From a virus (lineage: Duplodnaviria > Heunggongvirae > Uroviricota > Caudoviricetes), in IMG/VR virus record IMGVR_UViG_2778261706_000026: 4,529 bases of DNA; one strand, written 5' to 3'. The position numbers were made by a program, and so were the translations under genes. Below the pieces are notes generated by a model. That model was not told the DNA's origin. It was given only the letters and a program-made list of their open reading frames with translations, and searched no databases. Positions 3,640-4,529 of this stretch are shown here, one piece after another (position 1 is the stretch's first letter; the number at the start of each line of letters is the position of its first letter).

Positions 3640-3779
3640 ATGAAAAAAGATAACTATTCATTCAAACGAGCTTGTGCTGTTGTCGGTGGGCAATCAGCAA
3701 TGGCTAGGCTTTTAGGTGTATCTCCTCCAAGCGTAAATCAATGGATCAAAGGTGTACGTCAGTTGCCTGCTGAGAGATG
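3640..3779 (+). pseudogene. ydaS: Cro/YdaS-like HTH regulator, interrupted after codon 47 by an IS3-family insertion
   Basis: ATG at 3640 with GGAG 8 nt upstream. Translation MKKDNYSFKRACAVVGGQSAMARLLGVSPPSVNQWIKGVRQLPAERC matches my recollection of the N-terminal half of Rac YdaS. From 3780 the frame reads into the IS terminal repeat (EPPRVSWRVFYL) and stops at 3817-3819. Confidence 0.7.
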
Positions 3780-4529
3780 TGAACCGCCCCGGGTTTCCTG
3801 GAGAGTGTTTTATCTGTGAACTCAGGCTGCCAGATCATCGTTTCCGATGGAAGCATAATAAGCTTTTTCTGCTTCTGCCGGAGGAGTATGGCCCAGCCTT
3901 CCCAGCAATCGTCGATTGTTATACCAGTCCACCCACGTTAGTGTGGCCAGTTCCACTTCTGCACGGTTTTTCCAGCTCTTACGGTGTATTACCTCCGCTT
4001 TGTAAAGACCATTGATGCTCTCAGCCATCGCGTTGTCATACGAGTCGCCTGTACTCCCTGTTGATGCCAGTAATCCGGCTTCTTTTAGTCGCTCCGTATA
4101 GGCCAGTGACACATACTGAGAGCCTTTATCGCTGTGATGGATGGTGCCAGACGGACGACGGGCCCACAACGCCTGCTCCAGCGCATCCAGCACGAATGTC
4201 GTTTCCATAGACGATGAGACCCGCCACCCCACGATGTATCCGGCAAACACATCAATGATAAACGCCACATAGACGAAGCCCTGCCATGTGCTGACGTAAG
4301 TAAAATCAGCCACCCACAGCTGGTCAGGTCGTTCTGCCACGAACTGACGGTTTACGCGGTCGCCTGCGGCAACGGCTTTCCGGCTGATGGTCGTACGGAC
4401 CTTTTTACCCCGGAGAACACCGGCAAGTCCCATAACCGCCATGAGACGTGCCACTGTACATCTGGCCACCCTGATTCCTTCCCGTAACAACTGACGCCAG
4501 ACTTTACGCACACCGTACACCTGATGATT
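3780..4529 (-). mobile_element. IS3-family insertion sequence, partial (right end in window; extends beyond window end)
   Basis: Terminal sequence TGAACCGCCCCGGGTTTCCTGGAG begins at 3780 with the TG dinucleotide typical of IS3-family ends; the transposase stop lies 41 bp inside it. From memory this resembles the IS629/IS1203 group, which needs an ISfinder check. Confidence 0.8.
3822..4529 (-). CDS. IS3-family transposase OrfB (DDE integrase-type catalytic domain), 5'-partial at window edge
   Basis: Minus-strand ORF with a DDE-type catalytic region: WVADFTYV (D), HHSDKGSQY (D), [16 protein letters not shown] (E). Ends TGA at 3824-3822. The N-terminal part and orfA lie beyond position 4529. 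Confidence 0.85.

Follow-up and report, generated by a model that had tools for sequence, protein, structure and literature searches.

In E. coli K-12 the Rac prophage repressor RacR is essential since it represses the ydaS-ydaT operon (PMC5700373, PMC5700377, PMC11014345), and the racR gene can be deleted only in a background from which ydaST has been removed (PMC5700373, PMC11014345). Binding of RacR and three repeats have been described for the K-12 racR-ydaS region (PMC5700373). The toxicity in K-12 was assigned to YdaT and not to YdaS, and escape from derepression was found to occur usually by excision of the prophage, with a Tn5 screen giving no insertions in the Rac region (PMC11014345). 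For YdaT of the CP-933P type no toxic effect was detected (PMC8630535), and YdaS and YdaT have been argued to be the equivalents of Cro and CII, not a toxin-antitoxin pair (PMC5917428, PMC8630535). The operator of the CP-933P YdaT has been placed at the ydaS/ydaT boundary (PMC9986795). In E. coli O157:H7, IS629 is the most abundant IS; in the genomes studied, 62% of its copies are located in prophages or prophage-like elements at sites that differ among strains, and its target-site duplications are 3-4 bp long (PMC3271280). The Sp6 prophage of O157:H7 strain Sakai is defective and has morphogenesis defects, yet it excises spontaneously and is transferable to K-12 (PMC2669165).

The DNA analysed here, a window of 4,529 nucleotides, is the end of draft contig NHWI01000015.1 (assembly GCA_002194865.1), which ends 1 nt beyond the window, within an IS. 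No paper on this assembly was found in the literature. Window positions 1-3780 were 100% identical, base for base, to prophage Sp6 of E. coli O157:H7 Sakai (NC_002695.2), and the 2361 nt of chromosome (cobB-potD-potC) that the contig carries upstream of the window were also 100% identical to Sakai. The prophage features in the window are the following.

1-1119, minus strand: integrase gene.
Between the integrase gene and the RecE-type remnant in the window gene order: excisionase gene.
1419-1856, minus strand: C-terminal remnant of a RecE-type exonuclease, 145 aa of approximately 820 aa, annotated as exonuclease.
1941-2456, plus strand: gene of unassigned function, 171 aa, oriented against the PL operon.
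Between the 1941-2456 gene and the repressor gene: DUF1391 gene.
2899-2944, minus strand: PL/OL-like mirror set with the promoter TTGACA-17-TATAGT (2930 to 2902; 11/12 consensus positions).
3039-3515, minus strand: intact racR-like repressor gene, 158 aa, the CI equivalent of Sp6.
3544-3558, 3569-3583 and 3595-3609, no strand assigned: OR-like cluster of three 15-bp palindromes TTAGGCnnnGCCTAA (repeat family D1; spacing 25-26 bp).
3583-3612, plus strand: PR-like sigma-70 promoter TTGACA-18-TAATAT (10/12 in the consensus scan), overlapping operators 2 and 3.
3640-3780, plus strand: native 5' part of the ydaS-like (cro-like) gene, codons 1-47, with ATG at 3640 and GGAG at 3628-3631.

The repressor was found to be 100% identical to Sakai ECs_1506 and 92% identical to K-12 RacR, and it matched the RacR equivalog NF049929 with 246.8 bits (cutoff 200). 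Between racR and ydaS the intergenic region was 93% identical to its K-12 Rac counterpart. Searching the whole window with the operator pattern gave 5 matches, as compared to 0.17 expected. From the homology with K-12 and the consensus match we infer that the PR-like site drives ydaS. Two of the RacR-type palindromes, at 2905-2919 and 2930-2944 and 25 bp apart, belong to the PL/OL-like set and overlap its strong promoter-like site. The segment 2899-2944 is a mirror image of PR/OR (21-nt arms, 95% complementary), is conserved in K-12 Rac and is untouched by the IS; by its sequence it is probably the PL/OL of a RacR-type switch. The locus is thus similar to the K-12 Rac system in its RacR (92%), intergenic region (93%) and YdaS (85%), and also in the divergent layout with three operators and OL/PL. 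In contrast to Rac, Sp6 is a distinct prophage that has its attachment site beside potC and carries a lambda-type integrase, its YdaT is only 31% identical to that of Rac, and its ydaS is here cut by an IS. An exact 13-nt direct repeat, GGGTTGGTATGGG, was also observed at 2886-2898, just downstream of the PL-like -10, and at 3275-3287, inside racR. It is probably due to chance, because the copy at 2886-2898 is not exact in K-12 Rac.

The remaining features of the window belong to the IS and to the reading frame that runs into it.

3777-3779, plus strand: predicted target-site duplication ATG (or GATG from 3776), placed from the IS end at 3780; left copy only.
3780-4529, minus strand: right-hand 750 bp of an IS629/IS1203 element (IS3 family), opposite in orientation to ydaS.
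About 3780-3804: right terminal repeat of the IS (IRR).
3781-3819, plus strand: IS-encoded tail of the fused ORF, 12 residues in translation (EPPRVSWRVFYL) and the stop.
4529 to 3822, minus strand: 3' part of orfB (transposase), uninterrupted from the end of the window as far as the stop at 3822.

The IS part of the window was identical at 750 of 750 positions to a copy in E. coli O157:H7 TR01. This reference copy is 1310 bp long, is annotated as an IS1203-family (IS629) element and has an ATG duplication on its flanks. The terminus at 3780 reads TGAACCGCCCCGG... and the far end of the TR01 copy ...CCGGGGCGGTTCA. The termini are TG...CA in IS3-type inverted repeats, with IRR and IRL equal at 22/25 positions, and one of the two ends lies within the window. 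The orfB product matched PF00665 rve (E 5.7e-28; DDE transposase of the IS3 type) and NF033516 transpos_IS3 (266.3 bits, cutoff 160; profile positions 150-369 of 369). Together with the 750-bp identity, these matches bear out the IS3-family assignment made in the earlier note. A programmed frameshift is annotated in the TR01 copy, which is identical across the common 750 bp; the window holds just the 3' part of orfB.

The junction had been placed at 3779/3780, and this agrees with the canonical end of the IS, because the IRR begins with its terminal TG at 3780. The window departs from Sakai at 3781, and T3780 is compatible with the native TGT codon and with the terminal TG of the IS alike. The junction therefore lies at 3779/3780 by the canonical IS end and at 3780/3781 by identity to Sakai. 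The IS629/IS1203 polymorphisms described for O157:H7 prophages (PMC3271280) are matched in the 750 identical bp, the TG...CA ends, the inverted repeats of about 25 bp, the rve-type orfB and the location in a lambdoid prophage. They differ in that the site in the Sp6 cro-like gene, at codon 47/48, was absent from 5426 complete E. coli genomes, and in that one IS end is seen here.

The insertion was confirmed to lie in the ydaS-like gene, just downstream of the RacR-type operator/promoter region. As the earlier note had described, the frame is intact for 47 codons and then enters the IRR; these codons were found to be identical to Sakai ECs_1507. Across the junction the fused frame gives ...PAERC-EPPRVSWRVFYL, with its stop codon at 3817-3819, so that the predicted truncation of the YdaS-like protein takes the form of 47 native and 12 IS-encoded residues, 59 aa in total. 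This fused product is on record from 3 contigs of at least 2 samples and forms a singleton protein cluster. When compared with the uninterrupted homologous locus, the Sakai gene was found to continue past codon 47 and to be followed by a ydaT-like gene. ECs_1507 encodes 107 aa (60 codons beyond the cut) and K-12 YdaS 98 aa. Among 1091 complete E. coli genomes that carry the intergenic region and ydaS, the gene was intact, meaning at least 80% in one piece, in 1085. These lengths and counts ruled out a natural end of the homologue at codon 47, and disruption of the gene is rare.

Full-length YdaS matched PF15943 with 103.9 bits (cutoff 30) over residues 9-71, and P22_Cro also matched. Its best solved structures were Cro proteins, PDB 3bd1 (E 2.8e-10, residues 14-67) and 5w8y, and PHROGs labels it as a member of a transcriptional repressor family. 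On these matches YdaS is a Cro-type regulator. The Sp6 and K-12 YdaS proteins are 85% identical, with two differences within residues 1-47. The AF2 model of the full-length protein, built from an alignment of 11 sequences, has helices at residues 6-15, 18-25, 29-37, 44-53, 60-63 and 69-81, with pLDDT above 90 for residues 11-70. In this model the cut at 47/48 falls inside helix 4 and helices 1-3, including the HTH, are kept. The truncated product still reached 56.7 bits with PF15943 (cutoff 30), over profile positions 2-40 of 65. It is without most of helix 4 and all that follows, including the family's most conserved block, CPAIERAT.G.V.CEELRPD.DW, the invariance of which is inflated as the aligned homologues were retrieved with a C-terminal query. 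Because of the AF2 model and the conservation, the 59-aa Cro-like product is likely to be non-functional.

In Sakai, the Sp6 genes that come after the ydaS-like gene are a member of the ydaT family (141 aa), an O-like gene encoding a DnaT domain, a gene resembling lambda P and more early genes. The Sp6 ydaT product matched the YdaT family PF06254 with 41 bits and the CP-933P YdaT structure, PDB 8BT1, with an E value of 8.7e-80, whereas it was 31% identical to Rac YdaT. PHROGs labels it as a CII-like activator, and the protein is present in very many O157 assemblies. By sequence the gene is of the CP-933P type and not of the Rac type. When intact Sp6 was examined for a RacR-YdaS-YdaT module, RacR and a divergent, operator-fronted ydaS were present and a Rac-type YdaT was absent. 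The Pfam names suggest a toxin-antitoxin pair; this was ruled out based on the similarity of YdaS to Cro (3bd1, 5w8y) and of YdaT to the CII equivalent (8BT1), and on the PHROGs labels. The PaaR2-YdaS-YdaT switch of CP-933P, a prophage of E. coli O157:H7, with its Cro and CII equivalents, is matched by intact Sp6 in the likeness of ydaT to 8BT1 and in a YdaT-box-like sequence, ATGATTcatgaaAATCAA, at the ydaS/ydaT boundary (PMC9986795). It differs in that the Sp6 repressor is RacR and not PaaR2, and in that Sp6 is without the paaA2-parE2 module. The ATGATTcatgaaAATCAA sequence of Sakai Sp6 (L001 6941-6958, outside the window) has one mismatch to the published CP-933P YdaT operator TTGATTN6AATCAA and lies at the expected PRE-like position, a match that by itself is not significant. 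If the insertion is simple, the IS would sit between a PRE-like leftward promoter at ATGATTcatgaaAATCAA and racR.

IS1 and IS2 insertions in the gal and lac operons are the classical polar insertions, and the expectation of polarity at the present locus follows from general knowledge of IS insertions in operons. The present case resembles them in that an IS sits near the start of an operon's first gene and is followed by a premature stop and a long stretch without translation, with polarity being a prediction here. In transcripts from PR, translation would go no further than 3819, and about 1.27-1.3 kb of untranslated antisense IS would follow. A strong drop in expression is to be expected from Rho-dependent polarity for the CII-like ydaT, the O/P-like replication genes and the genes further downstream. 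This would shut the prophage out of its early rightward programme, with racR, OR/PR and OL/PL remaining intact. A weak terminator-like hairpin, at 3789-3801, was found on the PR strand shortly past the IS boundary. No promoter-like sites were detected by the consensus scan on either strand of the full IS copy, and no terminator was predicted between 3822 and 3516, that is from the transposase side of the IS to racR. The transposase genes point at racR, and read-through into racR, convergent with PR, is conceivable as a speculation. The insertion would plausibly end the residual excision and transfer activity of Sp6. Since Sp6 excises and is transferred in Sakai, the insertion may immobilise a carrier of virulence-associated cargo.

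Our main reading, to which we assign a probability of roughly 0.78, is a recent transposition of IS629/IS1203 into codon 47/48 of the Cro-like gene (ECs_1507) of Sp6, a lambdoid prophage that was already defective, in an O157:H7 lineage, which resulted in a neutral or mildly stabilising polymorphism. A simple insertion would place (G)ATG and TCCTGCGATTGAACG... after the left end of the IS. The far side would thus read IS left end, ATG and TCCTGCGATTG..., i.e. the remaining ydaS, and the flank (G)ATG and TCCTGCGATTGAACGAGC... would lead to the ECs_1508-like ydaT. The sequence breaks precisely where the IS ends, and neither the flank nor the IS differs from the reference copies, a sign of a young event; because of this a simple insertion is clearly favoured over a rearrangement, though not overwhelmingly. 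In the competing scenario the IS marks an IS-adjacent deletion, or a recombination event involving either IS629 copies or paralogous immunity regions of prophages, and the DNA beyond it is not ydaS-ydaT. The source contig ends within the IS, as such a scenario would allow, and in four O157 genomes matching duplications were present at only 21 of 47 IS629 sites (PMC3271280). A 174-bp repeat at the ECs_1507/ECs_1508 boundary, common to Sp14, is one terminus of the large chromosomal inversion of FRIK804 (PMC7430833), and numerous draft contigs break within the ydaS gene, with partial products of 58-72 aa. However, the junction coincides with the IS terminus, up to which the flank is 100% Sakai-like. 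The IS does not differ from active copies, suggesting that the event is recent, and nothing positive was found for a deletion.

The first junction (window 3600-4000) had no place with at least 80% query coverage in the 5426 complete E. coli genomes, and a synthetic second junction (IS left end, ATG and the remainder of ydaS) was likewise not found in these genomes. Such absence is as expected of a young private insertion, and we regard a rearrangement as unlikely. In exact-pattern scans the second junction had 0 matches in metagenome contigs, and 0 were obtained in viral contigs for either junction. When the hypothetical IS-ydaS 3' fusion was used as a protein query, just full-length YdaS and unrelated IS-edge fragments came back. 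The IS-derived part of this fusion frame is without an ATG, GTG or TTG start, and the first in-frame ATG gives only 26 aa. This negative result is uninformative either way, because no gene would be called across the second junction. The partial products of 58-72 aa in the YdaS clusters were examined as possible IS fusions and were found to be truncations of native sequence at contig ends.

An assembly artefact, in which Sp6 would be joined to a collapsed IS repeat in a chimeric contig, was also considered. The assembly is a short-read draft and the contig ends in a multi-copy repeat; still, Sp6 is joined to the inverted repeat of the IS precisely at the repeat's first base, the signature of transposition. 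As the same 59-aa fusion is found on 3 contigs from at least 2 samples, an assembly chimera is very unlikely, to the point of being hardly credible. In the YdaS clusters (P0064, P0072-P0081) the partial products fit with the ydaS-ydaT region being a repeat common to O157 lambdoid prophages, and contig breaks within ydaS are a general hazard when the locus is read in short-read assemblies.

The earlier note had proposed that the insertion could detoxify a RacR-controlled ydaS-ydaT module and make the repressor dispensable. The premise that RacR is essential by repressing a toxic ydaS-ydaT operon was upheld for K-12 as regards essentiality (PMC5700373, PMC11014345), but it is weakened for this locus, where YdaS is Cro-type and the Sp6 ydaT is of the type reported as non-toxic (PMC8630535). 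Lethal derepression has been described for K-12 Rac only (PMC5700373, PMC5700377, PMC11014345). In favour of selected detoxification, K-12 RacR is essential and deletable only without ydaST (PMC5700373, PMC11014345), both the repressor and the operators of this locus are closely homologous to those of K-12, and a polar block past codon 47 would silence all that lies downstream of PR. On the other hand, YdaS resembles Cro, and the toxic partner in K-12 is not YdaS (PMC11014345, PMC5917428); the Sp6 ydaT, 31% identical to Rac YdaT, is of the CP-933P type, which was reported to be non-toxic (PMC8630535). The racR gene is 100% identical to that of Sakai, without decay, and gave no sequence sign of relaxed selection. 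The insertion is also rare (3 draft contigs as compared to 0 of 5426 complete genomes), and the usual escape in K-12 is excision of the prophage and not insertion (PMC11014345). We consider selection for detoxification to be improbable. Nothing usable on prophage repressors was found in the EHEC transposon-sequencing literature, and a 2026 preprint on racR silencing makes no mention of IS or suppressor insertions.

Slightly more doubtful still is that the insertion was selected as a lock of the switch, with the Cro-like antirepressor lost and the PR operon polar-blocked, or that it suppressed the essentiality of RacR. If this were true, the prophage with its non-LEE effector cargo would be fixed permanently in the chromosome, or RacR would be dispensable; RacR-independent transcription of racR by read-through could also arise and collide with PR. 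On grounds of economy we prefer to read the insertion as a neutral or mildly stabilising IS polymorphism, strain-specific and typical of O157 prophages, and not as a selected detoxification. The kind of insertion is fully known; by comparison with the complete-genome collection its specific site is new and apparently private to a few draft-sequenced isolates. The scientific value is small: the list of strain-specific IS629 sites in O157:H7 prophages grows by one, and the site could be used as a typing or lineage marker. For a RacR-type switch it would also provide a naturally occurring allele that is cro-null and probably polar; should the IS strain be available, comparing it with Sakai could address the essentiality of RacR in O157 Sp6 and its dependence on the PR operon.

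The insertion had also been taken as a sign that the prophage is decaying or domesticated. Decay is real, but it is not owed to the IS, as the RecE-type remnant is already present in Sakai (PMC2669165). The ORF at 1419-1856 matched positions 685-823 of the 823 positions of phrog_2082 and positions 47-177 of the 177 positions of PF16473. Judged from the sequence, most of the Sp6 PL operon had already been lost by the time of the IS insertion, and it is in the same state in Sakai. The product of the gene at 1941-2456 matched phrog_1244 (unknown function), with no significant match in the Pfam search and none in PADLOC; this could be a moron or accessory gene. Its N-terminal half is a coiled-coil and a CxxC...CxxC motif is found in the C-terminal part.

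In TR01, an IS1203/IS629 copy was observed to split the lambda-P-like replication gene of a different prophage (L003 1601-1612, 2917-2925). This copy has the same orientation relative to the early operon as the one described here and is bordered by a duplicated ATG. Upstream of it lies GCTGGAATG, which is similar to the flank of the present insertion, GCTGAGAGATG, and the likeness may reflect a target preference or coincidence.
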